The position numbers were made by a program, and so were the translations under genes. Under the pieces are notes generated by a model, which made no database searches, was not told the DNA's origin, and saw nothing but the letters and a program-made list of their open reading frames with translations. From UHGV virus genome UHGV-0128318: a DNA stretch of 19,979 nucleotides; one strand, given 5' to 3'. Shown here one piece after another: positions 3,107-19,810 of this stretch (positions are counted from its first letter, which is position 1; each line of letters begins with the position of its first letter). Source of the DNA: a virus.

Positions 3107-3151
3107 GTTCTCACGCTCTTGAATGGTGGTAGCCCAAGCGGGGGTGAGAAT
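3107..3151 (-). promoter_or_regulatory. Leader target elements upstream of the icd-like RBS: a second copy of the 10-mer gttctcacgc (3107-3116, identical to the RNA loop at 3277-3286) and its partial complement gtgagaa (3144-3150)
   Basis: Exact 10-nt direct repeat 170 bp apart plus a 7-nt inverted copy. This allows either an intramolecular hairpin in the mRNA leader or pairing of the upstream small-RNA loop with the leader. Confidence 0.45.
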
Positions 3152-3234
3152 ACCGGCAAACGAAGAAACCGGCCTGACCGAAGTCAGCCCCGCCTGAGCC
3201 ACCATAAATCGGATATGCGCAGGTATATACACAC

Positions 3235-3256
3235 AAAAAAACACGCTGGCGCGTGT
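3235..3256 (-). terminator. Intrinsic terminator on the minus strand (acacgc-gcca-gcgtgt followed by T7), inside the leader of the antirepressor operon
   Basis: 6-bp GC-rich stem, 4-nt loop, immediate run of 7 T on the minus strand. Confidence 0.6.
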
Positions 3257-3309
3257 TGTGCGCTTCGTTTATCCGGGTTCTCACGCCCGGCTGCGGAATT
3301 TGCCGCAGC
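3235..3309 (-). ncRNA. Candidate c4/CA-type small regulatory RNA of about 75 nt: two stem-loops (3291-3308 ctgcgg/ccgcag; 3273-3290 ccggg/cccgg with loop cgugagaa) followed by the terminator
   Basis: Promoter-like TTGACG-18-TAAAGT on the minus strand (3345-3316) placed about 7 nt before the first stem-loop; loop sequence repeated and complemented in the downstream leader. Matches the known architecture of P1 c4 / P4 CI / N15 CA immunity RNAs. Confidence 0.45.
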
Positions 3310-3315
3310 GGAGTA

Positions 3316-3345
3316 ACTTTACCGTTAAAACGACGCACACGTCAA
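3316..3345 (-). promoter_or_regulatory. Putative sigma70 promoter of the anti-immunity operon (TTGACG-18-TAAAGT)
   Basis: Hexamer match and spacing read from the sequence; no other support. Confidence 0.3.
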
Positions 3346-3365: not shown

Positions 3366-3385
3366 CCCCGTGACCAGTCACGGGG
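3366..3385. repeat. 20-bp palindrome ccccgtgaccagtcacgggg (family 2: CGTGAC-YR-GTCACG), about 20 bp upstream of the putative operon promoter
   Basis: Inverted repeat with 9-bp arms; near-identical core at 8049-8062 and 14369-14382. Confidence 0.6.
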
Positions 3386-3446
3386 ACAGGTGTTTTTATA
3401 GTTTGCTTGAACGAGTGATCAGAAGTTGATCGTTAATCAAAGGCCA

Positions 3447-3734
3447 TTACGGATTAAGAGAGTGGAAATACCTAACTAACTTACCGGCATCATCACATTT
3501 TTCTTTATCTTCTTCCTTAACATAGCCGCGACAGAAGGCTGAATAAAATTTCGCATTTTCAGAAGCAAAAGCAGCCGTCGAAAGGAGCAGTTCTTTGCAT
3601 GATTCTTTTGATGCAGCATCGGGATTATTTTTACATGCAAGCTCCGCTGATGAGTTAATAACAGAAATGCTATCTTCCTGGGCATAAACCGCAGCAGAAA
3701 AGGCAAAACATAAAACCAAAATAAAACTCTTCAC
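3447..3734 (-). CDS. Small secreted protein, about 95 aa, with a signal peptide (KSFILVLCFAFSAAVYA|QE) and four Cys in the mature part; function unknown
   Basis: GTG start at 3734-3732 with AGGAG at 5-nt spacing (the track's longer start at 3758 lacks an RBS); classic n-h-c signal peptide with AxA site; locally AT-rich. Confidence 0.5.
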   Translation of the reverse strand: MKSFILVLCFAFSAAVYAQEDSISVINSSAELACKNNPDAASKESCKELLLSTAAFASENAKFYSAFCRGYVKEEDKEKCDDAGKLVRYFHSLNP

Positions 3735-3761
3735 TTTATCTCCTGTAACAGTTATCACAAC

Positions 3762-4157
3762 TCAATCAACTTTTTTAGCATCAGCCATACGCTTCAACCA
3801 GTAATCAACAATCGGCTGCTCATCCACAGAATGTTTACCAGGTATAACTCGCCAGCTATCTTGCGAAAATCTGCCGTACTTACGCGGGAATAGGCCTTTC
3901 TTTATCTCCCGCCATGTACTAGGAAAACCATCCACAAAAGTACCAATTAACAGGAGAGGGACAAAAATCAGAGCTACAAACCATCGTGCAAGAAAGTGTT
4001 CAACAACAACATTTTCACCGTTGTAGTAATACGCATACGCATCCAATATGCGAATTTTCCTTACCTTAAAAATAGCCTTATGCTGAGAACGACTTAACTT
4101 GATACGAATGTATCCCTTATCCAAAGGGGATTCGTATTTGTATGATTGAACAGCCAT
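3762..4157 (-). CDS. Single-pass membrane protein, about 131 aa (TM segment FVALIFVPLLLIGTFV); function unknown
   Basis: ATG at 4157-4155 with GGGG at 6-nt spacing; hydrophobic helix in the middle; AT-rich like its downstream neighbour. Confidence 0.5.
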   Translation of the reverse strand: MAVQSYKYESPLDKGYIRIKLSRSQHKAIFKVRKIRILDAYAYYYNGENVVVEHFLARWFVALIFVPLLLIGTFVDGFPSTWREIKKGLFPRKYGRFSQDSWRVIPGKHSVDEQPIVDYWLKRMADAKKVD

Positions 4158-4159
4158 TT

Positions 4160-4486
4160 TTAACCCCACTCACCATCAGCAAACAAAGCGTTATACTCTG
4201 ACAATGGTAGATGGTTGCCCTCGATGTAGAGATTCAGTTCATACTTCGTCTCCGGGTTTTCCTTGTCGGCTCGTTCCCAACGCTCAGCAGCCTCACGCGC
4301 CAATAACTCCACTGCTTTCAGATAATCCTCCGTACGGAACCAGCCAAAGATAAGGCCACGATCTGTTACAGCCCAGGCAACCTTTTTTTCTTCCTCCTGG
4401 ATAGCCTTAATGCGTCGATCGCATTCATCCCGGCAAAACTGCAGCTGACGGTAATCAAGTTTGTCCAAAAATGCAGTAGTAGACAT
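4160..4486 (-). CDS. Hypothetical cytoplasmic protein, 108 aa (MSTTAFLDKLDYRQLQFCRDECDRR...)
   Basis: ATG at 4486 preceded by GGGGAG; the track start at 4564 is an upstream extension without an RBS. Confidence 0.5.
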   Translation of the reverse strand: MSTTAFLDKLDYRQLQFCRDECDRRIKAIQEEEKKVAWAVTDRGLIFGWFRTEDYLKAVELLAREAAERWERADKENPETKYELNLYIEGNHLPLSEYNALFADGEWG

Positions 4487-4490
4487 ATTT

Positions 4491-4589
4491 TTACTCCCCG
4501 TTAACCGAAAAATCACGATAGAAACGTTTCCACATACGATAAGTCTGCGCGAGTTGTTCACCACGAAACATCGCCTTCCTGGCCTTCAT
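4491..4589 (-). CDS. Possible 32-aa micro-ORF (MKARKAMFRGEQLAQTYRMWKRFYRDFSVNGE) between repA and the next gene
   Basis: AAGGAAAA then ATG; its stop overlaps the RBS of the downstream gene. Too short to judge further. Confidence 0.25.
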   Translation of the reverse strand: MKARKAMFRGEQLAQTYRMWKRFYRDFSVNGE

Positions 4590-4674
4590 GTTTTCCTTGT
4601 GAGACTTTCGATCTATGAACCAAAACCATTGCTGGAACACACAAAGCAAGAGACACAAAGATAATATCCACTGA

Positions 4675-7600
4675 TTACCCATAGAAAGCGCCCTGCTCTT
4701 CGTAGCTGCATGGGCTATTCCCGGTAATGTATTCACGTAACCGCCGCAGTTCATTGCTGGATAAGTGATCCATGAACTCTGTGAGGTACAGAGAGGCAAA
4801 CGTCATAGCTATGCTGGCTGATGACCATGATGACATAGTGGCCAGCTCCTCACCGGAAAGCGCACTCATCGCCCAGGACTCAGGTACAACCACTGGCAAC
4901 ACAGCCAAAGCCTCAGAAATTACTGAATGAGGGGCGTTTTGAACCTGCTCGTTTGTGGATCGCGTTTTATCATCCATATATATATTGAGATCCAAATCGC
5001 GATCCATTTCGATGGCGGTCTTCTCGGCTTTACGCGTTTTCAGGGTTAGGCCATCTTTCTGACGCTGAGCAAGAATATCCAGCATAAATGCCGCTGATTC
5101 AGGCTCAACAAAACGCAAGGTTGGACGCTTATCGCCGTCTCTGCCGCGACGTTTACCTGTTTTAAGGCCAAGAGAGTCGCAAATGTTTTTAAACAACGCT
5201 TCCGGCACTTTAGGCTTCCCTTTTGGCGTCATAAAACCACCAATGTGCAGAACGTTATTCAACAGGTCACGGCGTTCGGCTGTCATGAGGTTATCTCGAG
5301 CGAATTTGAGACGCTCCTGAGTCGCCTCGCCGGTCATAGTCTCAGGGTTGATACCGCAGTCGATAAAGTACTGCCGGAGAGTTGCTGATTTAAGCGCATA
5401 GAAACCGCGCGCCCCGACTTCAACAGTAGGAGTAGCTTTTACCTTGTGATCGATTATTCCAGGGAATTTAGTTTTAAAGACATCATCAGCCTGCTCGCGA
5501 GTCATCGCGGTCACTACAAAATATTGCCACTGTCCCGCCTGACGGTATGCGTAGGTAAAATTGATGGCTGCTTCTTCCCGGTCGTAACGACGAGCTGTTA
5601 CCTCATCTAAAAGCATTGTTTCATAGCGGCGAACTTTGTCTCGAGCACCATCGAAATAGAATTTCAGCGTGCCTTCTTCAACCGGTAGTTTCAGTTCGTT
5701 TTCAATATCCCAGCGGACAAGTTTTGCCTGTTCTTCAAGCGTCAGCGCGCGTTTTTTTAGCAGTTCTTCACGCTCTGATTCTTGTGGAGTTTCTGTATTG
5801 AGGTGCAGATCCAGTGTCTGTTCCCACACAATATCCCGCGCTTCTTTACGCAGATCTTTACCGATATCATTCGCAGCATAATCGGTGGCCAGCGGTGATA
5901 CCTTATAACCGTCGCTGTGCATGATGCAGATCATGTTGCTGGCGTAGTCGTTACGCGCAGTCGCTTCAATTGCGGCTGCTTTAATTTTCATCCTGGTAAA
6001 GTCGGTATTGGCCACCCCCATTGATATACGGTCGCCATCGAAAACGACATCCGTAAGTTCACCGTTCATACCTGCGGTAGCAAGCAATGCCTGGGCGAAT
6101 GCTCGTTCTATTTTTTGCGGGTCAGTTTCACGTTTTGCACGAGCTTTATCAAAGCCGATAATAAATTCTTTTGCTGTACGGTCGCGGCGTAGCATTTGCA
6201 CTGCGTCGCTGGGTACAACTTCACCACAGAACATGCCGAAATGACGGTCAAAATGTTTTTGCTCAATCGACACGCCGGATGAAATAGACGGGCTATAAAT
6301 CAGGCCGTCGTATTTTTTGACCATCTTTTTCGGTTGATTGGTAAATGCTTCAACTTCTGGCTCTGGTTTGTTTTTCTGGTTTACACACAGAAATTTCTTA
6401 CCAGGAAAATGCATTCTCAGGGTGGCTGTCACATCTTCTGCAAAGGTGGAGCTGTCGGTGGCCAACATGATTTTTTCGCCATCCGATACAGCTTTCACCA
6501 CCTCGGTCATGATGCGATCTTTTTCTGTATAAAAAACCCGGATTGGCTCACCTGTTTCGCGGTTGCGAACATCAACAGGTAATTCAATTACGTGGATCTG
6601 CAGCCATGCCGGTAAACCTAGTTCTTCACGGCGTTTCATAGCCAGTTCAGCCAGGTCAACCAGTAGATCGTTCGCATCAGCATCCACCATGATTGGGTGT
6701 TGTTCCGTTCTGGCCAGCGCGTCAATTAGCGTATTGAATACAGCAACCGGGTTTTCCATAGCCCGACCGGAAAGAACGGCACGTAGCCCTTGCGTGGCCT
6801 CGTCAAAGCCAAAATAGTCGTGCTGGCGCATCAACGGTTGCCAGCAGTTTTTAACAATCGAGTTTATGCAGATGGTCAGTTTACTGGCGTATGGAGCCAT
6901 TTCCTGATAGCCAGGGTCCTGATAGTGCAGGATATCGGCTTTTACACCTTTTCCTTCTGTCATCATTTCCCACAGGCCACCAATAAGGGAGACACGGTGA
7001 GCAACAGAGATACCACGTTCTGAGCTATGCATTAACGGTCGTAACAATCCAGTAGATTTGCCGGAACCCATACCAGCACGGACGATGACTATCCCCTGTA
7101 GTGATTGCACGTACTTCAGGACATCATCGGTCATTACCGAAGTTTCAAAACGCTTATAGGTGATATGTTGAGGGCGTTTATTGGGATCAGTTATGCGTTC
7201 GCTGAAAGAGCGCGGAGCCTGGGCAATACGGCACTTTTTATTCAGGCGACGGGCAATGTGGTCTTTTACCGTAGCGCGATAGATATTTTCCAGTCCCATT
7301 TCACGCAGAACGATGCAGAACATGTTAAATAAATCTGACGGACTGTTAGGAACCGGGCAGGTTAGCATGCCAATATCCACCGCTCTCAGCAGCTCTTTGG
7401 CAAAAGTACGACGGTTATCCCGCTTAATTGTCTTCAGGCGGTTGAGCGTCAGAGATAGCAAATCAGTGCCAGTTTTCAGGCGGTTTGCAGTTGCAAACAG
7501 TTGACGTGCTGTTTCACGAAGTCCACGTAGTTTGTGCAGGTCGTTGAAGTCACTGCACTCCATTTGCGGATCGTCTTCAAAAGTTGGATAGACGCAGCGG

Positions 7601-8664
7601 ACATCGTTGAATTTCGATAAGATTTCATAGCCAGTCCGCAGGCCGGTATTCCCTTTTCCTTCTGTAGCTGATTTCCGGTCATTATCCAGTGCGCAGGTGA
7701 TTTTTGCCGCCGGGTACATGTTTACCAGTTGTTCCACAACATGAACCATGTTGTTAGCGGATACAGCGACAACCACAGCGTCAAAGCGTTTATCTTTTTT
7801 CGTGGCAAGCCAGATGGATGCACCAGTAGCAAAACCTTCTGTAACAGCGATGTTTTGCGCCCCTTTCAGCTCACCGATAACAAAGCAGGCACCGACGAAA
7901 TCGCCGCTGGTTACGGCGCTGGTCTGGTATTTTCCACCTTGTTTGTCGATTCGCTGCCAACCAACAATACGACCATCGTAACGACCGTCCAGGTGAGCCA
8001 GAGGGATAGCCATATACGTGGTTGGCCCCCTGCTCCATTTTGCGCTGTCGTGACTGGTCACGCGACGCACATCACACGAATTAAAAACGTCACGAATACC
8101 TTTTTTAATCGCATATGGCCATGAGCCGTCTTCTGCAGGAGCATGTTCCCAAGCACTGTGGAATGCCAGCCATCCCAGCAAACGTTCATGGTCCATTTGG
8201 TTGTTTTTCAGGTCATTAATTCGTTTTTGTTCTTCACGGCGACGACGTGCTTCACGTTCTATTCTTGCCCGTTCTTCTTCCGGTTGTGCGACCACGGTCG
8301 CATTATTCCGTTGTTGCTCACGGCGATATTCAGAAAACAGGAAGGAGAAACCGCTCCATGAGCCAGCATCGCTGCCTTTATGGACGAAGTTAATGAACGG
8401 GTAATCAATCCCTTTGCTGTGTTCCAGTCGGGAGTAAATTTCTACGCGTCCTTTGAGGCTCTTCTCGAGAGCTTCTGGAGATGTTTTATTGTATGAAGAG
8501 TAACGCTCAACACCCCCGCGAGGGTTGAGTTGGATGTTGTCGGAACAGGCAGACCAGTTGATACCAGCCATCTGTGCCAGCTCGGTTAGTTCATCCCGTG
8601 CTGCTTCAATTAGCGAGAACGGATCGCTGCCAAAGCGATCCGCATAGAAATCGTTTAATGTCAT
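4675..8664 (-). CDS. repA: RepA-type multidomain replication protein (primase-helicase), 1329 aa, with a Walker A motif (GMGSGKST)
   Basis: Size and position (next to cB, transcribed away from cro) match N15 repA, which is about 1.3 kaa; NTP-binding motif seen. All + strand track ORFs between 5616 and 8404 are antisense artefacts of this gene. Confidence 0.9.
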   Translation of the reverse strand: MTLNDFYADRFGSDPFSLIEAARDELTELAQMAGINWSACSDNIQLNPRGGVERYSSYNKTSPEALEKSLKGRVEIYSRLEHSKGIDYPFINFVHKGSDAGSWSGFSFLFSEYRREQQRNNATVVAQPEEERARIEREARRRREEQKRINDLKNNQMDHERLLGWLAFHSAWEHAPAEDGSWPYAIKKGIRDVFNSCDVRRVTSHDSAKWSRGPTTYMAIPLAHLDGRYDGRIVGWQRIDKQGGKYQTSAVTSGDFVGACFVIGELKGAQNIAVTEGFATGASIWLATKKDKRFDAVVVAVSANNMVHVVEQLVNMYPAAKITCALDNDRKSATEGKGNTGLRTGYEILSKFNDVRCVYPTFEDDPQMECSDFNDLHKLRGLRETARQLFATANRLKTGTDLLSLTLNRLKTIKRDNRRTFAKELLRAVDIGMLTCPVPNSPSDLFNMFCIVLREMGLENIYRATVKDHIARRLNKKCRIAQAPRSFSERITDPNKRPQHITYKRFETSVMTDDVLKYVQSLQGIVIVRAGMGSGKSTGLLRPLMHSSERGISVAHRVSLIGGLWEMMTEGKGVKADILHYQDPGYQEMAPYASKLTICINSIVKNCWQPLMRQHDYFGFDEATQGLRAVLSGRAMENPVAVFNTLIDALARTEQHPIMVDADANDLLVDLAELAMKRREELGLPAWLQIHVIELPVDVRNRETGEPIRVFYTEKDRIMTEVVKAVSDGEKIMLATDSSTFAEDVTATLRMHFPGKKFLCVNQKNKPEPEVEAFTNQPKKMVKKYDGLIYSPSISSGVSIEQKHFDRHFGMFCGEVVPSDAVQMLRRDRTAKEFIIGFDKARAKRETDPQKIERAFAQALLATAGMNGELTDVVFDGDRISMGVANTDFTRMKIKAAAIEATARNDYASNMICIMHSDGYKVSPLATDYAANDIGKDLRKEARDIVWEQTLDLHLNTETPQESEREELLKKRALTLEEQAKLVRWDIENELKLPVEEGTLKFYFDGARDKVRRYETMLLDEVTARRYDREEAAINFTYAYRQAGQWQYFVVTAMTREQADDVFKTKFPGIIDHKVKATPTVEVGARGFYALKSATLRQYFIDCGINPETMTGEATQERLKFARDNLMTAERRDLLNNVLHIGGFMTPKGKPKVPEALFKNICDSLGLKTGKRRGRDGDKRPTLRFVEPESAAFMLDILAQRQKDGLTLKTRKAEKTAIEMDRDLDLNIYMDDKTRSTNEQVQNAPHSVISEALAVLPVVVPESWAMSALSGEELATMSSWSSASIAMTFASLYLTEFMDHLSSNELRRLREYITGNSPCSYEEQGAFYG
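4950..5010. other. Candidate internal replication origin element: AT-rich stretch (catatatatatt) with three GATC sites within about 50 bp, inside the 3' end of repA
   Basis: Seen in sequence; N15 ori is known to lie within the 3' part of repA. Confidence 0.3.
8049..8062. repeat. Family-2 palindrome cgtgactggtcacg inside the repA 5' coding region
   Basis: Perfect 6-bp arms around a 2-bp centre; same core as 3366-3385 and 14369-14382. Confidence 0.6.
8287..8302. repeat. SopB-type centromere-like palindrome tgcgacc-ac-ggtcgca (family 1), inside repA coding sequence
   Basis: 7-bp perfect arms; core GACCACGGTC resembles the F sopC binding site TGGGACCACGGTCCCA; four more copies in the window. 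Confidence 0.5.
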
Positions 8665-8718
8665 TTTTTAGCCATTCCATGCGAATTATGTTTTTTCGGG
8701 TTGAAAAAATCCGCAGGA

Positions 8719-8774
8719 GCAGCCACAATAAACGCATCTTGAATTGACGGAATCCGTCGCGTTGTTGTGGCTGC
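8719..8774. promoter_or_regulatory. Long imperfect inverted repeat (gcagccacaataaacgc ... gcgttgttgtggctgc) enclosing a small hairpin (gacgg-aat-ccgtc), in the repA 5' leader
   Basis: About 14 of 17 arm positions complementary; lies between the repA ATG (8664) and the cB stop (8910). Confidence 0.4.
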
Positions 8775-8787
8775 TTCCTGAAAAGGA

Positions 8788-8815
8788 CCCGAGTTTGCCG
8801 ACTCGGGTTTTTTTT
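8788..8815 (+). terminator. Strong intrinsic terminator on the + strand (cccgagt-ttgccg-actcggg then T8); in the minus orientation the same hairpin is followed by only ccuuuu
   Basis: 7-bp stem and 8 T read directly; there is no + strand gene upstream, so it may end an antisense or leader transcript, or act weakly and bidirectionally after cB. Confidence 0.5.
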
Positions 8816-8909
8816 CGTCTTTTTTCTGCTGCTGTAACCTGAGTCAACCCACAGAACATATGCCCTGCATTAAACCAGATTTACAGTAAACAATAAACCC
8901 CATATTAAG

Positions 8910-9506
8910 TCATCTACCCTCAACCATGAATGATTTGATCGTTCCGACTATTTGGTGAACAAATTCAAGATCGCTTTTCCTGAAGATGGCGCGTTGTGAG
9001 TTTGTTCCATCCAGATAGTAATTTTCATCATCAAAACGGGCCAGGCGCTGGATAGTGATATTTCCTGCAGTATCACGAACCAGAACATCCTCGCCGGGGA
9101 CCAGTTCCAGCGCAGAATCGACCAGGAGAAAATCGCCTGGCTGATAGTTTCCCTGCGTAAGATTGCTGATAGTTAACGCATACACAGTATTGCGCTGGCT
9201 GATGAATGGCAGGAATCGCTCAGTATTTGGAACCTGTCCCGGCTTCCACTCTTCATCCGGCCCACTTTCAGTTGTGCCAATAACAGGAATGCGATCAGGG
9301 TCATATTCTGTCCCATATAGCACCCAATGCACTGGCTTGCGTAAGCACTTAGCCAGGGCAATACCTATCTCCAGTGACGGCATTACGTCGCCACGTTCTA
9401 AGTTTTGGACGCCTGCTATAGAGATATCGACAGCCTCAGCAACTTCTCGCAACGTCAGCTTCATCTCTAAACGGCGTGCTTTCAGTCGTTCGCCTCGTGT
9501 TTTCAT
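8910..9506 (-). CDS. cB: Prophage repressor CB (lambda CI-like: N-terminal HTH, C-terminal S24/LexA-like domain), 198 aa
   Basis: HTH region LTLREVAEAVDISIAGVQNLERG at the N-terminus and a C-terminal domain of repressor size; divergent from cro across an operator region. Confidence 0.85.
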   Translation of the reverse strand: MKTRGERLKARRLEMKLTLREVAEAVDISIAGVQNLERGDVMPSLEIGIALAKCLRKPVHWVLYGTEYDPDRIPVIGTTESGPDEEWKPGQVPNTERFLPFISQRNTVYALTISNLTQGNYQPGDFLLVDSALELVPGEDVLVRDTAGNITIQRLARFDDENYYLDGTNSQRAIFRKSDLEFVHQIVGTIKSFMVEGR

Positions 9507-9528
9507 AGCTTAATCATAAATGATCTTC

Positions 9529-9544
9529 TTATAGCTGGCTATAA
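9529..9544. promoter_or_regulatory. Operator palindrome ttatagc-tg-gctataa (candidate CB/Cro operator 1)
   Basis: 16-bp inverted repeat in the cB-cro intergenic region; second copy 26 bp away. Confidence 0.6.
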
Positions 9545-9554
9545 AATTTATTTA

Positions 9555-9570
9555 TTATAGCTGGCTTTAA
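9555..9570. promoter_or_regulatory. Operator palindrome ttatagctggctttaa (candidate operator 2, one mismatch to operator 1)
   Basis: Near-identical direct copy of the 16-mer at 9529-9544. Confidence 0.6.
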
Positions 9571-9597
9571 TTGTTGTTTATTGTTTATAATAACAAC

Positions 9598-9819
9598 ATG
9601 AAACCAGAAGAACTTATTCGCCATTTTGGCAGTGTAGAAAAAGCAGCGGCAGGGGTAGGTGTAACACCCGGAGCTGTTTACCAATGGTTAACCGCTGGAG
9701 AGATTCCTTCATTGCGGCAAAGCGATATTGAAGTTCGTACTGCTTATAAGCTGAAGAGTGACTTTACAACTCGGCGGGTAAAGCAGTCGATTAAGGAGAG
9801 TCGTAAGCGTGGAGCTTGA
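9598..9819 (+). CDS. cro: Cro-like small HTH regulator, 73 aa (MKPEELIRHFGSVEKAAAGVGVTPGAVYQWL...)
   Basis: Divergent from cB; HTH motif; ATG at 9598 preferred over the track's TTG at 9571. A TATAAT hexamer sits at 9586-9591 only 6 nt upstream, so the mRNA may be leaderless. Confidence 0.7.
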   Translation: MKPEELIRHFGSVEKAAAGVGVTPGAVYQWLTAGEIPSLRQSDIEVRTAYKLKSDFTTRRVKQSIKESRKRGA

Positions 9820-10519
9820 GTATATACGCAGCTGCGTCTCTACGGCATTGGCTGATGTTCATTATCTCCAGCGTGGCATTCTGGAGGTCCAGCTTGAGCA
9901 GATGCGTCTCGGTAGATCAGGACGGTTTAACAATAAACCAGTCCGGTCAATCAGTGTGGGGGATGATAACTCATACGAAGTGTCCGTTTCTGCTGAGCCG
10001 GTTAGATTCCATCAGGGGAAAACATTTAAACAATCATCAATGTTGCTCACTGATATTGATTTTCAGAGCGCCAGCTGGCGCAGGGCTATTGGTCAGTTGA
10101 ATAACGAGGAATCAGCCTGGCTTTATTATTGCTACGGATGCAAGCCTGATTACAACAATGATGTGATTGTTTGTCAGTGGTTATGGCTTGATTTTCTGGT
10201 TGCTCATTCGGGGGGCGGCTTTAAAAAAATGAAGGCCTCCACGAAAAAAGCTATGCGAAAATTGATTTATTACGCGGCACAACAGGTTAAATCAGAACTT
10301 ACGTGTGCTGAGGCAGTTGATGAGAGAGAACAGGACAGGCATCTGAGTTTTCTACTGAATATATCTATTGATAGCTGGAGACAAGATTATAAAGAACGCT
10401 GGCTTTTAATTAAGTCGCGATGTCTGAGCTTAAATCGAACTGCATTATTAAATGCGGCGGAGAAGCGCAGTGAAATCATCAAACGCCATCGGGCAGGAAG
10501 TGCCATTCTGCCTTTGTAA
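9809..10519 (+). CDS. Putative late-gene antiterminator (Q-like by position), 236 aa with CxxC (CYGC)
   Basis: Immediately downstream of and overlapping cro, as Q is in N15/lambdoid phages; the family assignment is positional only. Confidence 0.45.
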   Translation: MELEYIRSCVSTALADVHYLQRGILEVQLEQMRLGRSGRFNNKPVRSISVGDDNSYEVSVSAEPVRFHQGKTFKQSSMLLTDIDFQSASWRRAIGQLNNEESAWLYYCYGCKPDYNNDVIVCQWLWLDFLVAHSGGGFKKMKASTKKAMRKLIYYAAQQVKSELTCAEAVDEREQDRHLSFLLNISIDSWRQDYKERWLLIKSRCLSLNRTALLNAAEKRSEIIKRHRAGSAILPL

Positions 10520-10772
10520 ACAAGTTATGTTCAGGAAACCGTCGAAGCCAGAATTAAGGTATTCGGGGGTAAGAAATGAATATGTTATCTGGTGTCCAAC
10601 TTGTGGTTATAGGACACGACCAGATAGTAATAAGCAGTCTGTAATTGCCGATTGGTATTTATCAAATCAGCCAGGTAATAAGCATATAGAAAATCTTTGG
10701 ATTAAGCGTTACTTGGAAATCAGAGAGGGTGCGACCGTGGTCGCACAAGAAAATGAAAATAACGCCATTTAA
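10470..10772 (+). CDS. Zinc-ribbon small protein, possibly Lar-family (restriction alleviation-like): PFCLC ... WCPTCGY ... SVIADWY
   Basis: GTG at 10470 with GGAG at 7-nt spacing, overlapping the Q-like 3' end by 50 nt; an alternative ATG at 10527 loses the first Cys pair. Confidence 0.35.
   Translation: MKSSNAIGQEVPFCLCKQVMFRKPSKPELRYSGVRNEYVIWCPTCGYRTRPDSNKQSVIADWYLSNQPGNKHIENLWIKRYLEIREGATVVAQENENNAI
10729..10746. repeat. SopB-type centromere-like palindrome gtgcgacc-gt-ggtcgcac (family 1), within coding sequence
   Basis: 8-bp perfect arms. Confidence 0.5.
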
Positions 10773-10782
10773 GCAGGGGCCG

Positions 10783-10956
10783 ATGACGCATGATGAAGCA
10801 GAGCGTCTTTCAGATACTTATCGGCGGCGTGGTAAGAAAGTTCTGGTTGTTCGTTCTGATTTTTTAGGTGATGGATATTGTGTTTATGTTCATTTACCTG
10901 AATCAGAAAGAACGCCAAAACCATCCAGAACATATCAACAGAAAATTTGGGTATAG
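10783..10956 (+). CDS. Hypothetical small protein, about 57 aa (MTHDEAERLSDTYRRRGKKVLVVRSDFLGDGYCVYVHLPE...)
   Basis: ATG preceded by AGGGG; the track ORF 10729..10956 extends upstream across the palindrome and the preceding gene. Confidence 0.3.
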   Translation: MTHDEAERLSDTYRRRGKKVLVVRSDFLGDGYCVYVHLPESERTPKPSRTYQQKIWV

Positions 10957-10979
10957 ATAAACGTTGAGGAGAATTATTC

Positions 10980-11579
10980 GTGACTAATCAGATTATTTAC
11001 GACAGGAAACGGTCTGATGTAATGATTGACCTTGAAACAATGGGTACTAACACATGTGCTCCAATTGTTTCTATCGGGGCAGTGTTTTTTTCTCCAGAAA
11101 GTGAGGAATTAGGTCCTACTTTTTATGTGCCAGTGAATCTCAGAAGCTCGATGTTGAATGGTGGTATCGCCGATGGTGATACCATTTTATGGTGGTTGAA
11201 ACAGAGCAAGGAAGCCAGAGCCGCTATTTGTACTAATGATGCCCTTGATATTAATGATGCACTTTTTGAATTATCACACTTTATTACTTGCCATGCATGT
11301 AATTTAAAAAAGTTGAAAGTATGGGGAAATGGAGCAACGTTCGATAATGTAATTTTACGCGGTGCTTATGAGCGCGTTGGCTTAGCCTGTCCGTGGGAAT
11401 ATTTTAATGATCAGGATGTTCGAACAATCGTTAATCTTGGTCAGTTTATTGGTTTTAATCCTAAAAAAGATATGCCATTTGATGGCGAACGACACAATGC
11501 CTTGGCTGATGCTATTCATCAGGCTAAATATGTATCCGCAATTTTCTCCCGTCTTGTAAAAGGGCAAGGAGAATCGTAA
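10980..11579 (+). CDS. DEDDh-type 3'-5' exonuclease (DnaQ/RNase T-like fold), 199 aa
   Basis: Motifs MIDLETMG (Exo I, D-x-E) and HNALADA (Exo III, H-x4-D); GTG start with GAGGAG at 8 nt. Confidence 0.7.
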   Translation: MTNQIIYDRKRSDVMIDLETMGTNTCAPIVSIGAVFFSPESEELGPTFYVPVNLRSSMLNGGIADGDTILWWLKQSKEARAAICTNDALDINDALFELSHFITCHACNLKKLKVWGNGATFDNVILRGAYERVGLACPWEYFNDQDVRTIVNLGQFIGFNPKKDMPFDGERHNALADAIHQAKYVSAIFSRLVKGQGES

Positions 11580-11998
11580 TGGCAAAGGCTTTTACACCAG
11601 AACAGAGGGAAGAACTGAATAAACAAATTGTGGAACTCGTGCGCCTGAATGGACGAGGAACGGTTAGGCAACTTGCGGATGAAACTGGTATTAGCCGGTG
11701 TGCTGTTAGTCGTTTATCAAGAGAGCTTGCTGCCAGTGGTGATTTGTATATCTCTGGCTCCGGGATATTTCTGTCTGCACAAGCACGCAAGGACTGGCAA
11801 AACGCCCGTAAAAAACTATCAAGAGTAAAGCCGAAGAAATCGGTAGTGGTTGATCCAGACCTTATCTGGTCATTACCTGACGGAGAAATACGTCGTTACG
11901 ACAGGCGCTTGAACATGATTTGTCACGATTGCCGGAAAAGTGAAGTTATGCAGCGTGTGCTGGCTTTTTATCAGGGAAATTTACAGGAGGTGGCGTAG
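11579..11998 (+). CDS. Putative HTH DNA-binding protein, 139 aa
   Basis: Helix-turn-helix-like segment TVRQLADETGISRCAVSRLSREL; start overlaps the upstream stop. Confidence 0.5.
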   Translation: MAKAFTPEQREELNKQIVELVRLNGRGTVRQLADETGISRCAVSRLSRELAASGDLYISGSGIFLSAQARKDWQNARKKLSRVKPKKSVVVDPDLIWSLPDGEIRRYDRRLNMICHDCRKSEVMQRVLAFYQGNLQEVA

Positions 11999-12288
11999 TG
12001 AATATCGACACCACGATAACGATCGATACGGCCCTAAATATCGGTCTGGCACTTCTCGGTTGGTTTTACATCATGTTCAGTGCGGGGAAGTGGGCGGCCT
12101 CTGTTTTTCTAAAGCAGTGGGGAAAGCACCGCAAACAGGAAAGACGCCAGAAAGTGTTAGAGGCGTTCTATGACGCATTTGAACTTAGCCGCATTGAGCC
12201 AGGCACAACAGCCAAGATAGCGACAAAAGGCGACCTGATGATAGTGATGTTCCGACAGGAGAGAGCAGAGAAAGGGGAATCAGCATGA
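11998..12288 (+). CDS. Small membrane protein, 96 aa (hydrophobic segment ALNIGLALLGWFYIMF)
   Basis: GTG start after GGAGGTGG; one predicted TM segment. Confidence 0.4.
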   Translation: MNIDTTITIDTALNIGLALLGWFYIMFSAGKWAASVFLKQWGKHRKQERRQKVLEAFYDAFELSRIEPGTTAKIATKGDLMIVMFRQERAEKGESA

Positions 12289-12974
12289 AATTTTCCAAAT
12301 TTTCTGAGTTGGTGAATCGTATTTTGTCCAACAACCACAGCCATCGTCGCGATATGGATGTAACAATCGTTATTCATTCGCCTGGCAGCATTGGTTCAAC
12401 ACCCTCAGTTGAGGTTCAGTCAATTCACGCTGGTTTTGATTGGGATTCCGGGAAAGTGCTGATTTTCCCAGCACAGCCACTGACCACGCTAACACCAGAA
12501 CAGATTACTGATATTACTGATAGTGTGCGCAAAGGTCAGTCCTGGCACGCATATCAGGAATACAAGAAGCATAAAGAGCAGTTGGAAAAATTATCGATTG
12601 AACTTGATACCGCAAAACAGCGCATTGCAGAGCTGGAGAGCAATCGCGCGGCGCTGGCGGCGGAGCCTGTAGCGTGGCGATATCGCTACGTGAAAAAAGG
12701 CGTTACGGACTCTCAGGGGGAGCCGTGGGTTGGTGACTGGAAATATGTACCGACAACAGAGGATTGCAACGACAGGCCGAGCTATGAGATTCAGGCCTTA
12801 TTCACTGCCCCGCCAGTCCCGGTGACATCAGAAGGACTGGTTAAAGCCGTGCGTTTCTATGAACAAGTTAAGCGTGAAAATCCGCCAGTCGAAACCGGAG
12901 CATGGAAAGACGCGATTGACTGGGTGCTCAAAGAGGCCTGCCAGGTTGTAAACACTGGCATCAAAGGAGAATGA
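12285..12974 (+). CDS. Hypothetical protein, 229 aa, with a central coiled-coil (KEQLEKLSIELDTAKQRIAELESNRAALAA)
   Basis: ORF with overlapping start/stop junctions in the operon; no recognisable domain. Confidence 0.5.
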   Translation: MKFSKFSELVNRILSNNHSHRRDMDVTIVIHSPGSIGSTPSVEVQSIHAGFDWDSGKVLIFPAQPLTTLTPEQITDITDSVRKGQSWHAYQEYKKHKEQLEKLSIELDTAKQRIAELESNRAALAAEPVAWRYRYVKKGVTDSQGEPWVGDWKYVPTTEDCNDRPSYEIQALFTAPPVPVTSEGLVKAVRFYEQVKRENPPVETGAWKDAIDWVLKEACQVVNTGIKGE

Positions 12975-12975
12975 T

Positions 12976-13185
12976 ATGGCTATTGCCGCAAGTTACACCA
13001 TGCATCTCTATTGTGACTGCCGTCAGTGCACGGAAGGTGTATATCCAGTGCCAGACTTCGGTGAGTATATAGGTACGTCATGGGCTGGCTGTGCAAAAGA
13101 GGCGCGCAAGGATGGCTGGCGAATAAGCAAAGACAAAACGCGTGCTTTTGCGCCAGGGCATAAAGTTTTGAGGATTAACAAATGA
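12976..13185 (+). CDS. Hypothetical small Cys-containing protein, 69 aa
   Basis: Tightly packed within the operon; contains CDCRQC. Confidence 0.4.
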   Translation: MAIAASYTMHLYCDCRQCTEGVYPVPDFGEYIGTSWAGCAKEARKDGWRISKDKTRAFAPGHKVLRINK

Positions 13186-13577
13186 CCACTATTACCAAAG
13201 AGCGACTGCTGACAATCAAGCAGTGGCGCGAAACATACGGACCGGGTAGCAACGTTGTACTGCCAGCAGAAGAAGCGGAAGAACTGGCACGAATTGCGCT
13301 GGCATCGCTGGAAGCAGATCCAGTTAAACGAGTTAACTCAGATCAGATGCGCCGAGTCTGCTTAGAAGCTAATCGCCATTTAGATAAATATGACGCGATG
13401 GCGAAAGAGGTAAATAAGTTGCTTGGACGCATCGCCCCGCCAGCGCCGGTAGTGCCGGAAGAAATCAGTACGACCCACACAATGCTGCCCGCCATGAGTG
13501 ATCAGTTGATGGCGTTCGGTTATGTGAAGGGGTGGAATGCCTGCCGTGCCGCTATGCTTCAGGGAAAAGGAGAGTGA
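13182..13577 (+). CDS. Hypothetical protein, 131 aa (MTTITKERLL...)
   Basis: ATGA overlap with the upstream gene; shares its first five residues with the next gene. Confidence 0.5.
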   Translation: MTTITKERLLTIKQWRETYGPGSNVVLPAEEAEELARIALASLEADPVKRVNSDQMRRVCLEANRHLDKYDAMAKEVNKLLGRIAPPAPVVPEEISTTHTMLPAMSDQLMAFGYVKGWNACRAAMLQGKGE

Positions 13578-13578
13578 T

Positions 13579-14031
13579 ATGACCACTATAACCGATAAGA
13601 AACAGTATCCAGGCGAGCAATATCTTAATGAGCTGATCACCAACATAGAGTTTGCTGCAAGGGCACCAGTTGAAGTCGTGAGAGCGATGGCAGCAGAGCT
13701 ACAGAAGCGGCGCGAAGCTGATAGTGCAGAACCTGTAAGCCAAACTTACAAGTTAACTTTTGAGCAATGGCTGGAACAGCAGCACGGCAAAATTGATGTT
13801 GATTGCGGCTGTGTGAGCACTGAAATGCTTCTGCACTGGATGCGTGTGGCGTATGAGGCTGGCAACTCTCCGGTAACTCCGGATGGTCATGTTCAGTTTT
13901 CTGTTTCACTTCCTGCAGCGTTTGGTGGAGATAAATATTTTATTGATGGTGTATTTCAACCTTTGAGATATGAGCGTGACTGTGAAAGGGCGGTTGTGGC
14001 CGCTGGCGGTGTAGTTAATTGGGTTAAGTAA
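13579..14031 (+). CDS. Hypothetical protein, 150 aa (MTTITDKKQY...)
   Basis: ATG one nt after the upstream stop, RBS GGAGAG; the track start at 13537 is an extension. Confidence 0.5.
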   Translation: MTTITDKKQYPGEQYLNELITNIEFAARAPVEVVRAMAAELQKRREADSAEPVSQTYKLTFEQWLEQQHGKIDVDCGCVSTEMLLHWMRVAYEAGNSPVTPDGHVQFSVSLPAAFGGDKYFIDGVFQPLRYERDCERAVVAAGGVVNWVK

Positions 14032-14046
14032 TTTTCAGGAGGATTT

Positions 14047-14373
14047 ATGGCGCTGACACCGGCAGAACGGCAAAGGAGACGCAGGGAACGGTTGAAGAAG
14101 GAAGGCACATCAAGACGGGACTGGATTCTAGAACCTGACGAGTTACGTATGTTGGGGGAAATTTGTGTATTGCGTAGACCAGGGCGAGTTCCATATTCGG
14201 AGAACGAAGTCATTGGTTTGCTGATCAGGAAAAACTATAAGGAGCTGCAGAAGCAGCTATCTACTACTTGCCCGCGATGTGGTCAAAAAATGCCTGTTTC
14301 AGAATGCATTTTTGATGGCGAAGGGTCATGCCACCTTACAACCACGAGGCTGAAACTTGCGCTCAAAGCGTGA
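14047..14373 (+). CDS. Small basic DNA-binding-like protein with a C-terminal Cys cluster (TPAERQRRRRERLKKEG ... CPRCG ... C), 108 aa
   Basis: ORF with RBS AGGAGG; N-terminal Arg-rich stretch resembles a ribbon-helix-helix or basic DNA-binding region. Confidence 0.45.
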   Translation: MALTPAERQRRRRERLKKEGTSRRDWILEPDELRMLGEICVLRRPGRVPYSENEVIGLLIRKNYKELQKQLSTTCPRCGQKMPVSECIFDGEGSCHLTTTRLKLALKA

Positions 14374-14382
14374 CTGGTCACG
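14369..14382. repeat. Family-2 palindrome cgtgactggtcacg spanning the stop codon of the upstream gene and immediately before the next RBS
   Basis: Perfect 6-bp arms around a 2-bp centre. Confidence 0.6.
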
Positions 14383-14391
14383 GAGGGATAA

Positions 14392-14634
14392 ATGGATAAA
14401 AAGGCATTGCTTTTTGAAATGATACGAAAACGGAGCGAAAAGAGCTTTTCTGATGGTGGTGATGGGTTTGTTTTCGCTTCGATGCTTGCTTTTGATGTTG
14501 GGTTAAATAGCAGAATTGTTAAAAGGATGCTTGATTCTGCTGTCCGTACTGGACTTCTTGAGAAAGTTGATCGTGGCATAGGGAGAGAGCATAAGTATCG
14601 GGCCACACAGCAGTTTACGCAGTTAATTCATTGA
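14392..14634 (+). CDS. Hypothetical small protein, 80 aa
   Basis: ATG with GGAGGG RBS. Confidence 0.45.
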   Translation: MDKKALLFEMIRKRSEKSFSDGGDGFVFASMLAFDVGLNSRIVKRMLDSAVRTGLLEKVDRGIGREHKYRATQQFTQLIH

Positions 14635-14662: not shown

Positions 14663-14678
14663 CTGTAATTTTATACAG
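14663..14678. promoter_or_regulatory. LexA (SOS) box CTGT-aattttat-ACAG overlapping a candidate promoter (TTGAGT-17-TACAGT)
   Basis: Matches the CTGT-N8-ACAG consensus with an AT-rich spacer; the only such site found in the window. Confidence 0.55.
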
Positions 14679-14716: not shown

Positions 14717-14920
14717 ATGTCTGAAGCAGCCGTATCAACTCTTGAACAACTCGATTCAAATTTAAGAGATATTGACGCCATTCTGGATCTGGTTAGCGTC
14801 ACCCTGGCTTCTCCAGAAGCCAGCCTACATATTGGTGAGGTTTCACGACTCATCAACATGTCGCGAGAGATTGCCCAGCATTGTCAGAAAACTATCGCTG
14901 TTGAGCGTTCACATCATTGA
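14717..14920 (+). CDS. Small SOS-controlled protein, 67 aa; candidate LexA-regulated antirepressor (AntC/Tum-like by regulation and position)
   Basis: First ORF downstream of the LexA box; N15 is known to have a LexA-controlled small antirepressor. No sequence-level identification was possible. Confidence 0.4.
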   Translation: MSEAAVSTLEQLDSNLRDIDAILDLVSVTLASPEASLHIGEVSRLINMSREIAQHCQKTIAVERSHH

Positions 14921-14962: not shown

Positions 14963-15250
14963 TTAATAAACAGCGCGAATATCGATGGCTGCGCCGCAGG
15001 CATGAGCATATTTAGCCAAAGTTTTCATACTTGCCCCTAAAGGATTGCTTTCCAGGCGGCTGATGGCTGACGGTCGTAACCCCATTCGTTCAGCCAGAGC
15101 TGATTTCGTTAAACCTGCTCTTTCCCTCATTTCGTATAACATTTCGACCATCTCCAGCTCTTTGTCGGCCTCTTCATATCCTTTGACGGCTTCTGGAGTG
15201 TTGAGGAGTTTTTCTTTTACTTCGTTAAACGGGATGCCTTTCGCTTTCAT
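14963..15250 (-). CDS. HTH (XRE-family) antitoxin, HigA-like, 95 aa
   Basis: HTH segment LTKSALAERMGLRPSAISRLES; translationally coupled (ATGA) to the upstream toxin gene. Confidence 0.75.
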   Translation of the reverse strand: MKAKGIPFNEVKEKLLNTPEAVKGYEEADKELEMVEMLYEMRERAGLTKSALAERMGLRPSAISRLESNPLGASMKTLAKYAHACGAAIDIRAVY

Positions 15251-15561
15251 CAGTTCATCTCCTTCAGGCGAGTTCTGGCGATTTCGATAGCCTTCACCGG
15301 TGTTTTCTGTGTCTTTTTTACAAATGCATGCAATAGATAAATTTCGTTACCAGTCGCGTAGGCGTACAGCGTTCTTGCGATGTTTTTATCCCCTACTCGT
15401 AGTTCAAAAAGCCCTCCACCTATTACACGGCTATGGGGCATCTTCAGTTTGTTGCCTTCTTTCTCCAGTCGCTCAATTAATCTGGCCATGCGACCTCGCA
15501 AATCATCTGGTAGTTCAAGCAGTTCATCCAGTGCTGCAGGGTGGGTTATCACGTTAAACAT
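15250..15561 (-). CDS. Gp49-like (RelE/HigB-fold) toxin, about 103 aa (MFNVITHPAALDEL...LLHAFVKKTQKTP...)
   Basis: Hallmark LLHAFVKKTQKTP motif of the Gp49-like family; ATG at 15561 with GGAGG at about 8 nt; the track's longer start lacks an RBS. Confidence 0.8.
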   Translation of the reverse strand: MFNVITHPAALDELLELPDDLRGRMARLIERLEKEGNKLKMPHSRVIGGGLFELRVGDKNIARTLYAYATGNEIYLLHAFVKKTQKTPVKAIEIARTRLKEMN

Positions 15562-15726
15562 ATTATAGCCTCCACATCCATAAAATACACCAAAACAAGA
15601 AAACAACGCAAATTAAAAATTTCATTAAAAAGCGAAAAATAACACTGGATGTGTTCGTTTGGCAGAGTTACAGTTCGTGTCATTGAGGGGCAATAACCCA
15701 CTAACTATATGAATTTGGAGGATATT

Positions 15727-16189: not shown

Positions 16190-16193
16190 AAGC

Positions 16194-16213
16194 TGTGCGA
16201 CCACGGTCGCACA
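16194..16213. repeat. SopB-type centromere-like palindrome tgtgcgacc-ac-ggtcgcaca (family 1), intergenic
   Basis: 9-bp perfect arms, 5 nt after the stop of the preceding gene. Confidence 0.5.
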
Positions 16214-16298
16214 GCACAAAAACGAAAAAGCTTGGCAAAATGACGGTTTTTAGTTATTGTTTTGTTAAGTTGGGTTTTTTGTACCCAACAGCCAACAA

Positions 16299-19233: not shown

Positions 19234-19253
19234 TGTGCGACCGTGGTCGCACA
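19234..19253. repeat. SopB-type centromere-like palindrome tgtgcgacc-gt-ggtcgcaca (family 1)
   Basis: 9-bp perfect arms. Confidence 0.5.
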
Positions 19254-19453
19254 TTAAATACCGCGCTGCATCGTCGCCGTATTTCCGCATTAACCATGAC
19301 CGTAGCCCGACGGGGAACTCCTCTGCGCGAGTGTGCGGAAATAATCAAAAACGATGCACACCGGGTTTTTACCGCGCTAATGATTCGCGGGTTTGTCCCT
19401 CATGCTCGCCAGTCCTGTGCGAGGGTGGAAGAAACAGGGCATGTATTCAGGAG

Positions 19454-19473
19454 CGTGCGACCGTGGTCGCACG
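19454..19473. repeat. SopB-type centromere-like palindrome cgtgcgacc-gt-ggtcgcacg (family 1)
   Basis: 9-bp perfect arms; 200 bp downstream of the previous copy. Confidence 0.5.
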
Positions 19474-19495
19474 GTATCTTTGTCAGGAGGTTTTG

Positions 19496-19810
19496 ATGAA
19501 AGAGTTGCAAAAAATTAATTCAATAATGGAAAGATTAAGTGCTCTTGAGCGTAAGCTGGACGATTGTGGAAAGCTGTGTGTTGAAAAGCAAAATGAGCTT
19601 TACCGGGAATTTTTTACAATCGTAAGTGAGCTGATGCCAATTGTTAATAACTGCCTGATGACATCCAGATTTTTTAATGTCGATGCTACTACATCCAGAA
19701 AATTTTCTGTGAAAATTCAAGAAAGAGTTTCTGGTAGTGTGACAAGAGAGATGGCTGAACAGTTGGTGGCAATGAGCAATAAAACAAAAAGAAAAAAGCA
19801 TTGCTTGTAA
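19496..19810 (+). CDS. AT-rich moron-like gene, 104 aa, unknown function (N-terminal coiled-coil, basic C-terminus)
   Basis: ATG with AGGAGG at 6 nt; by eye about 35% GC against a roughly 50% GC background; located between the lysis cassette and cos. Confidence 0.5.
   Translation: MKELQKINSIMERLSALERKLDDCGKLCVEKQNELYREFFTIVSELMPIVNNCLMTSRFFNVDATTSRKFSVKIQERVSGSVTREMAEQLVAMSNKTKRKKHCL

Follow-up and report, generated by a model that had tools for sequence, protein, structure and literature searches.

Three palindromes in an N15-like linear phage-plasmid and the small protein gp46 as their probable binding partner

The window, as we call the whole 19,979-nucleotide stretch of virus genome UHGV-0128318 analysed here, comes from an N15-like linear phage-plasmid (Ravinvirus), of which it forms the early and plasmid-maintenance region; it contains three exact copies of a 14-bp palindrome with the motif CGTGAC-YR-GTCACG. 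These palindromes are real and under strong selection at the DNA level. Quite probably they are operators of gp46, a 108-residue protein encoded at 14047–14373 on the plus strand, an assignment that rests on the co-inheritance of gene and site and on the modelled fold of the protein. Together, gp46 and the palindromes apparently form a regulator–operator set of a familiar kind with an unusual placement, previously undescribed. The window has 97–98% identity to Escherichia phages PhiR46_1 and YDC107_1, compared with about 75% identity to N15, phiKO2 and Klebsiella telomere phages.

Occurrence and conservation of the palindrome

The 14-mer (CGTGACCAGTCACG; reverse complement CGTGACTGGTCACG) is found exactly at 3369–3382, 8049–8062 and 14369–14382 (Sites 1, 2 and 3), and no match occurs in any of 200 dinucleotide-preserving shuffles (mean 0.00). 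In the 46 kb of N15, the GTGACNNGTCAC core occurs exactly three times against 0.04 expected, and PhiR46_1 also has three; the motif lies far above chance by the kind of count that an earlier note on this DNA had suggested. A systematic list of the palindromes in the window gives two clean families. Family 1 (TGCGACC-RY-GGTCGCA) has five copies and equals the four IR1–IR4 centromere sites of N15. The published oligonucleotides for these SopB sites match family 1 only (PMC7205306), and family 2, with CGTGAC in place of TGCGACC arms, is therefore separate, which bears out the same note's claim of a second family distinct from the sopC-like one. The CGTGAC arms also exclude family 2 from the sopC-type centromere consensus, TG(C/G)GACC-NN-GGTC(G/C)CA. 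When up to two mismatches are allowed, the window has six matches, including the three exact ones, against 0.49 expected; the additional relatives, each with two mismatches, are located at 11914, 14134 and 15345 (CATGATTTGTCACG, CCTGACGAGTTACG and CGTTACCAGTCGCG).

The positions of the sites are conserved in related phage-plasmids, so that this second check suggested in the earlier note also came out in favour of its reading. In N15 the copies lie upstream of genes 30–32, within gene 37 (repA) and at the junction of genes 46 and 47, with the same positions and orientations as in the window, and the identical three-site pattern is seen in phiKO2, Enterobacter phage MStein-2023a, one Pseudocitrobacter contig and ~45 viral contigs. 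In N15, phiKO2 and about 50 other N15-type replicons (~70–85% identity), the palindrome is found at these three places and not elsewhere. Alignments of the three regions show that each 14-mer is the centre of an island of full identity between genomes that are about 70–75% identical. The two central base pairs vary among homologous sites (TG, CA, GG, CC, AT, CT, GT, AG, CG and AC), so the arms and the 2-bp spacing of the motif given in the note hold and its central YR is no requirement. The conserved core is GTGAC-N2-GTCAC, and its spacing is constant in more than 150 copies; arm variants occur in locus L089 and in the PhiR46_1-type Site 3.

The clearest sign of selection comes from Site 2 (PAL2, CGTGACTGGTCACG, 8049–8062), which lies within repA, 612 nt into the open reading frame (ORF). 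This gene (4675–8664, minus strand) encodes a primase/helicase-type replication protein and also carries one SopB centromere site at 8287–8302, which is 238 bp from the palindrome and matches the distance of about 240 bp noted before. In the repA reading the palindrome is CGC GTG ACC AGT CAC, encoding R-V-T-S-H. Codons −2 to +3 (CGT CGC GTG ACC AGT CAC) are invariant in 29 distinct N15-type sequences, in which nearly all other degenerate codons within 30 codons of the palindrome have two to five synonymous forms. In the PY54-like repA genes of gp46-less replicons, the N-V-R-R-V-T peptide is unchanged but is written with other codons (GTT/GTA and ACG/ACA/ACT), and the palindrome is absent. Conversely, the divergent locus L139 has altered repA amino acids, yet it retains two palindromes 32 bp apart, CGTGACGTGTCACG and GTGACCCGTCAC. 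In the window, GTCACG at 8089–8094 (CGTGAC when read in the repA sense) is an auxiliary half-site, 32 bp from the matching arm of Site 2; its codons, ATT CGT GAC, do not vary in any of the 29 sequences, and the same position is occupied by the full second palindrome in L139. Judged from these codon patterns, selection at Site 2 acts on the DNA and not on the protein. N15 mini-replicons without the gp46 region still replicate (PMC2847241), so Site 2 would be regulatory and outside the essential origin.

Site 1 (PAL1, CGTGACCAGTCACG, 3369–3382) is intergenic, with the last gene of the repA operon on one side and the anti-repressor promoter Pa on the other, and is conserved in N15, phiKO2, MStein and ~40 viral contigs. 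Pa (3316–3345, minus strand) is a sigma-70-like promoter of the anti-immunity operon, TTGACG-18-TAAAGT, with hexamers that are kept in N15, phiKO2 and MStein. Its predicted start at ~3309 is the 5′ end of the isrK-like RNA in the Rfam model, so that the centre of Site 1 precedes the beginning of the isrK-like/C4 leader by about 66 bp, in agreement with the reported position just upstream of the anti-immunity promoter. The palindrome is longer here, with 20 bp at 3366–3385 (CCCCGTGACCAGTCACGGGG); this extension, already described for the window, is specific to it and is missing in N15 and phiKO2.

Site 3 (PAL3, CGTGACTGGTCACG, 14369–14382) holds the TGA stop codon of gp46 and abuts the Shine–Dalgarno sequence (GGAGGG) of the next gene, gp47 (14392–14634, plus strand), and thus straddles a stop codon and a ribosome-binding site as had been observed. 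The arrangement with the stop in the left arm is shared by all 52 close loci and most distant family members. The gp47 gene encodes an 80-residue protein with weak winged helix–turn–helix (wHTH) signals and is followed by a promoter-like region with the sole perfect LexA box of the window (CTGTAATTTTATACAG, 14663–14678) and by a 67-residue antA paralog (14717–14920; phrog_6301/10889), which we take to be probably the SOS-controlled antirepressor called AntC in N15. The paralog has no annotation in the N15 GenBank record, where tblastn finds a match at 39619. Sites 1 and 3 are located where transcription from an upstream operon would enter an anti-repressor module, and Site 2 is located in the replication gene. 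A mosaic breakpoint falls exactly at Site 3 (14382/14392) in L093, L094, L096, L097 and L136, contigs that are nearly identical apart from this, where gp46 is 97–100% identical and gp47 is 41–53% identical; therefore, the palindrome may double as a recombination joint.

gp46 as the candidate binding protein

The earlier note had ascribed family 2 to a different DNA-binding protein and named the products of genes at 11579, 14047 and 14392 as candidates. The presence and absence of genes strongly favours the second of these, gp46, the homolog of N15 gene 46 (phrog_536, 'transcriptional regulator' in PHROGs), and its co-occurrence with the palindrome and its predicted fold support the idea of a separate binder. 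In a seven-genome matrix, gp46 is found at 77–81% identity in every genome with sites and is missing in PY54 and VP882, which have no sites. The DUF977 protein at 11579 was rejected, since N15, phiKO2 and MStein lack it and nevertheless have all three sites. The 14392 product, gp47, is disfavoured as the binder because its homologs persist in PY54-like loci without a site (eight of nine gp46-less loci), and it is likely a target gene instead.

The association of gp46 with the palindrome extends over about 150 loci. In 52 of 52 close loci, the GTGAC core begins at the last base of the final gp46 codon or no more than 3 nt from it (L060), so that the left arm includes the TGA stop. Of the 28 loci at 37–45% gp46 identity, 26 show an exact GTGAC-NN-GTCAC at the gene end or shortly behind it, and in another the copy carries one mismatch. 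Even in branches of ~30% identity (L153–155, L171 and L184–192, from Vibrio and other phages), the palindrome is located at the gene end, often with the stop codon in the arm. On the other side, nine PY54-like loci found with RepA as an anchor, together with VP882, have neither gp46 nor a site in the 8–46 kb covered (4 kb for L143); the RepA scan of genome contigs gave two loci only. Kpn_R1 and L091 have gp46 with Site 3 only.

An exhaustive profile search collects the gp46 family into 104 clusters at 50% identity. In the alignment of 51 members, a basic N-terminal helix with the pattern A-E-R-K-x-x-Q-R-x-R is followed by a strand-like segment, a pair of helices and a C-terminal C-x2-C … C … C motif; Arg8 is invariant, and Arg13 is nearly so. 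An AlphaFold (AF2) model based on this alignment has a predicted local distance difference test (pLDDT) score of 91.2 and was used in place of one from 17 close homologs alone, for which the pLDDT is 55. According to the model, gp46 consists of a basic N-terminal helix, a ribbon–helix–helix (RHH) core with the strand, helix, helix order of solved RHH proteins, and a C-terminal Cys4 zinc ribbon. Dimerization and recognition of duplex DNA via paired β-strands would follow the pattern of this fold. The putative β-strand motif also differs by lineage with the palindrome centre: RRDWILEP is found with TG, K-x-ELxLD with AT and RVEVxLS with CG, which fits an RHH sheet placed on the dyad. Arg8 and Arg13, in turn, show the same constancy as the arms. 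A single-sequence search of the PDB with gp46 gave nothing usable, and Foldseek found nothing significant in the PDB for the model. Among the 51 members, two match PF10723 (RepB-RCR_reg, E 0.028) and one matches PF01402 (RHH_1, E 0.071), all below the gathering threshold, and the window protein itself matches neither. The C-terminal half of the family has weak profile similarity to the RNA polymerase-binding zinc fingers of TraR/YbiI (E 0.02–0.03), which belong to the DksA/TraR family with its defining pattern CxxC-N17-CxxC.

The gp46 family is spread over N15-like, epsilon15-like, P2-like, Mu-like and lambdoid phages, where its gene is usually the final gene of an early operon. Behind the palindrome, epsilon15-like phages such as Tyrion have terS/terL after a terminator, Pantoea phage AH07 has xis–int and P2-like phages have the cos/portal junction; a LexA-box promoter, a lysis cassette or gemA–mor follows in others. 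The AH07 homolog is annotated as a 'RepB-like replication regulatory protein', and this phage has a second copy of the palindrome within its Q-like antiterminator gene. Enterobacter phage Tyrion (L151) has exactly three copies (2702, 20377 and 41755), each located where a transcription unit ends; intrinsic terminators adjoin two of them, and one is found at a convergent junction. L071 has copies at 4336 and 6542. Tyrion 20377 and L071 6542 are located at a convergent 3′–3′ junction or an operon end adjoining terminators. On the transcribed strand, most copies in epsilon15-like phages lie 3–24 nt before a GC-rich hairpin or intrinsic terminator, although the hairpin at Tyrion 2702 is no more than weak. 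Where the copy follows the gp46 homolog in epsilon15-like phages, it shares bases with a −35-like GTGACA; a plausible −10 comes next and then a terminator before terS, in a layout that resembles Q/PR′–tR′. The Tyrion record starts inside a palindrome, and we considered this as a physical genome end; it was rejected as an arbitrary cut after the last gene. In the P2-like loci L162, L169, L175, L179 and L182, paired half-degenerate inverted copies (GTGTCCGGTCAC … GTGACCGGACAC), about 10 bp apart, lie ~20–60 nt after the gp46-family gene and before the portal gene, where P2-like phages have cos. In L156, the two arms are separated by a 28-bp insert.

Proposed action of gp46 and rival explanations

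The explanation that we consider best overall, and reasonably probable, is that the palindromes serve gp46 as its cognate operators in double-stranded DNA and that the output of binding is negative. A gp46 dimer would sit on the dyad with its RHH β-sheet over the variable central base pairs, while the helix with Arg8 and Arg13 would read the GTGAC arms. The first operator would follow the end of the repA operon and precede the icd–antA–antB promoter, centred at about −66; the second would lie within repA, with the auxiliary half-site three helical turns away; and the third would lie across the gp46 stop codon, directly before gp47 and the SOS-controlled antA paralog. Once bound, gp46 may act as a repressor or as a roadblock to transcription, so that less read-through from the repA and early-right operons would reach the two anti-repressor modules, and it may also damp repA expression. 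These details of its action are put forward tentatively, at somewhat less than even confidence. A negative or roadblock role is favoured because copies occur inside ORFs (repA and the AH07 Q gene) and at convergent junctions, where there is no promoter to activate. Known control circuits of N15 are CB/Cro/Q, the C4-type RNA with AntA/B, LexA with AntC, and SopAB. If the proposal is correct, gp46 would be a third trans-acting N15 regulator that couples copy number to the lysis–lysogeny decision, and the deeply conserved constraint inside repA would be accounted for.

Several observations weigh against this proposal. It is unusual for an RHH repressor to have its operator 3′ of the gene that encodes it and spanning the stop codon, and this placement could indicate action in cis or at the RNA level. 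The distance from site to promoter varies between −66 in the window and about −50 in type C. The tracking of the β-strand with the palindrome centre is confounded by phylogeny, and gp46 matches no family in Pfam or NCBIfam. The P0080-like branch (P2-type phages of Aeromonas and others) is looser, with degenerate or split copies, a copy 0.8–1.3 kb away, or none in 3–6 kb. The RHH protein is absent among the nine phage proteins detected in NAR688 lysogens; the 'gp46' listed in that proteome is the CB repressor in that phage's own numbering and not this protein. Lastly, a literature search with the motif strings returned unrelated mammalian primer matches only, and no paper on the motif was found.

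A positive role for bound gp46, as an activator or a Q-like switch of late or middle genes acting on a promoter or terminator just downstream, seems unlikely to us. It would suit the usual place of the gene at the end of an early operon, before later functions (terS/terL, a lysis cassette, gemA–mor, xis or a LexA-controlled small gene), and also the positions of Site 1 and the type C site at −66 and about −50 of a promoter, the epsilon15-like palindrome that overlaps GTGACA with a terminator 24 nt later before terS, and the weak TraR/YbiI similarity of the zinc-finger half. However, copies inside ORFs or at convergent 3′–3′ junctions have no promoter to activate, Site 3 lies only about 10 nt before the gp47 start codon, and the promoter distances are not phased; moreover, Pa works on clones lacking gp46, which counts against activation. 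An element that works as RNA is distinctly improbable. It would be a GUGA/UCAC hairpin with a 4-nt loop in the gp46 3′ end and the repA message, bound by the Arg-rich helix of gp46 or sensed by the terminating ribosome, and would act on mRNA stability, on termination or on how the following gene is translated, by a logic like that of Mu Com or lambda N. The UGA stop is located inside the left arm in four of five lineage types, directly followed by the Shine–Dalgarno sequence of the next gene; the N-terminal helix of gp46 is arginine-rich; many copies are followed after 3–25 nt, on the transcribed strand, by a terminator or another hairpin; and the arm variants of L089 and the PhiR46_1-type Site 3 would be G–U wobbles in the sense RNA. 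Yet the stem is invariant, without covariation, and it is the loop that varies, the 5-bp stems form weak hairpins (z −1.0 at Site 2 and −0.5 at Site 3), and Site 1 is outside the Pa transcript, upstream of its start. The predicted RHH core is a double-stranded DNA-binding fold, and the half-site with its 32-bp spacing in repA fits the helical phasing of DNA. No intrinsic terminator is called at any of the three sites, and no Rfam family overlaps them. Antisense pairing of a Site 1 RNA with the repA or gp47 message was also considered and rejected, because the central dinucleotide needed for complementarity is not conserved.

The arms of the palindrome are the same as those of matS, the target of the host protein MatP, itself an RHH protein, and the sites could thereby tie the linear plasmid to the terminus and divisome machinery of the host; we regard this as very unlikely. 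The hosts identified are Escherichia, Klebsiella, Salmonella, Enterobacter, Pantoea, Vibrio and Aeromonas, all of which, to our knowledge, belong to the MatP-bearing group, so host range is no test against MatP. The sites vanish with gp46, although PY54-like phages infect MatP-bearing Yersinia, and a host factor would not explain the strict adjacency to the gp46 gene. The matS consensus is a 13-bp sequence with a 3-bp spacer, GTGAC-[AG]N[TC]-GTCAC (PMC3603311, PMC8669397, PMC7394560), whereas the spacer of family 2 is 2 bp in all of the >150 copies and never 3 bp, on which ground its identity with matS was rejected. A search for GTGAC-N3-GTCAC found none in N15, PhiR46_1, phiKO2, PY54, Kpn_R1, MStein or VP882, and prophages are reported to avoid matS (PMC3603311). 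The gp46 system is also phage-encoded with a site that adjoins its own gene, unlike MatP/matS, and in the model gp46 has a zinc ribbon in place of the four-helix bundle and coiled coil of MatP. The gp46 profile has no MatP match in the PDB at E ≤ 10, none of the 51 members matches Pfam MatP (PF06303) or MatP_C (PF17414), and hhalign of the family against a single MatP sequence, an insensitive comparison, gave E 0.17 over 13 columns. That some other phage protein (the gp47 wHTH protein, gp50 or gp51, RepA or SopB) is the binder and gp46 a mere neighbour is highly improbable. gp47 directly follows Site 3 and has its weak wHTH similarity, and gp47b, gp48 and gp50 share the N15-type phyletic pattern in the seven-genome matrix. 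However, gp47 homologs occur in site-less PY54-like loci, the downstream gene differs with each distant lineage (xis, terS, holin, gemA or none) while gp46 is constant, Kpn_R1 and L091 have a diverged RepA N-terminus with Site 3 unchanged, and SopB has distinct sites of its own. Finally, chance repeats, or a conserved linker to which nothing binds and at which phage modules recombine, would agree with the mosaic breakpoint at Site 3 in the five loci named above; we give this almost no credence, because the shuffles contain no match, the synonymous-site invariance in repA would be unexplained, and the arms are conserved across gene families of 30% identity.

The proposed gp46 operators have parallels in known systems. 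P22 Arc and Mnt are small phage RHH repressors that control the antirepressor gene of the secondary immunity region (immI), and similarly, two of the three sites in the window are on the upstream side of antirepressor modules. With the copy-control repressors of the CopG, RepB-RCR_reg and CopB type, gp46 shares the small RHH protein, the basic N-terminus and a short palindrome tied to a plasmid replication gene. In contrast to these, its Pfam matches are far below threshold, its site is inside the repA ORF and not at a promoter, and, unlike the CopG-type proteins, its family is found mostly in integrative phages without a plasmid replicon. The SopB sites IR1–IR4 of N15 likewise are short palindromes whose centre is 2 bp, and they are scattered along the same arm of the genome, with one in repA 238 bp away; however, their arms are TGCGACC and not CGTGAC, and their binder is known (ParB-type SopB). 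In PY54, family 1 is switched to the F-type TGGGACC version and family 2 is simply missing. In a wider and more doubtful extension, gp46 with GTGAC-N2-GTCAC would be a widespread phage module, with the site across its own stop codon, that marks operon boundaries and key lytic genes (repA and Q) in N15-, epsilon15-, P2-, Mu-like and lambdoid phages. Such a module might be a dedicated roadblock or insulator, or a MatP-like DNA-bridging system that times or compartmentalizes transcription, perhaps with an evolutionary link to MatP/matS. That many unrelated temperate phages carry this cassette of gene and site points to a general device, and the half-site identical to that of matS raises the question of cross-talk or common ancestry with the host chromosome organizer.

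Neighbouring features of the window

N15, the model linear phage-plasmid, is the basis on which the pJAZZ cloning vectors were built, and Klebsiella commonly carries N15-like telomere phages. The left part of the window contains, in order, the protelomerase gene, the anti-repressor operon (Bro-N antB-like, antA-like and icd), small genes, repA, and cB, cro and Q. The right part contains a variable early-right block, gp46, gp47 and the antA paralog, a Gp49/HTH toxin–antitoxin pair (HTH, helix–turn–helix), gp50 and gp51, a methylase gene and the lysis genes. The anti-immunity leader (3122–3322, minus strand) is composed of c4-a1b1 targets (3322–3270), the isrK-like RNA with its terminator (3309–3236) and the C4 antisense RNA (3209–3122), every one above the Rfam gathering score. 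This leader is a complete P1-type anti-immunity RNA module, with isrK-like as the Hfq-binding RNA, and is followed on the same strand by icd (3077–2904), the antA-like gene (2907–2674) and the Bro-N antB-like gene (2677–1904). Just upstream of Site 1, a conserved intergenic block at 3390–3433 is made up of GTTTTTATAGTTTGCTT and a GATC-containing repeat, which is CTGATCAGAACCTGATCAG in N15 and phiKO2 and the degenerate GTGATCAGAAGTTGATCG in the window; in phiKO2 it forms a 31-bp perfect palindrome. This block could be a Dam/SeqA-sensitive or terminator-like element that ends the repA operon.

The toxin–antitoxin-like pair at 14963–15606 (minus strand) consists of a Gp49-like toxin (DUF891, RelE/ParE-type; 15250–15606) and an HTH_3 antitoxin (14963–15250); it is also kept in N15 and phiKO2, and MStein is without the toxin. 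The SopB-type family 1 palindromes of the window are located at 8287–8302, 10729–10746, 16192–16215, 19234–19253 and 19454–19473. These five copies compare with four each in N15 and phiKO2, seven in Kpn_R1 and eight of the F-type TGGGACC version in PY54, and the additional pair at 19.2–19.5 kb, 220 bp apart, flanks an ORF at 19235–19810. Lastly, the record of YDC107_1 (CP025712, locus L004) and several IMG/VR contigs (e.g. 3300045988_113976 and 2791355284_000001) have a large inverted duplication around the protelomerase/telomere end. Genes and palindromes are doubled there in opposite orientation, as if the assembly had run through the hairpin telomere or had captured a head-to-head replication intermediate, and motif counts are inflated in these records because of the duplication, with five family 2 copies in YDC107_1.

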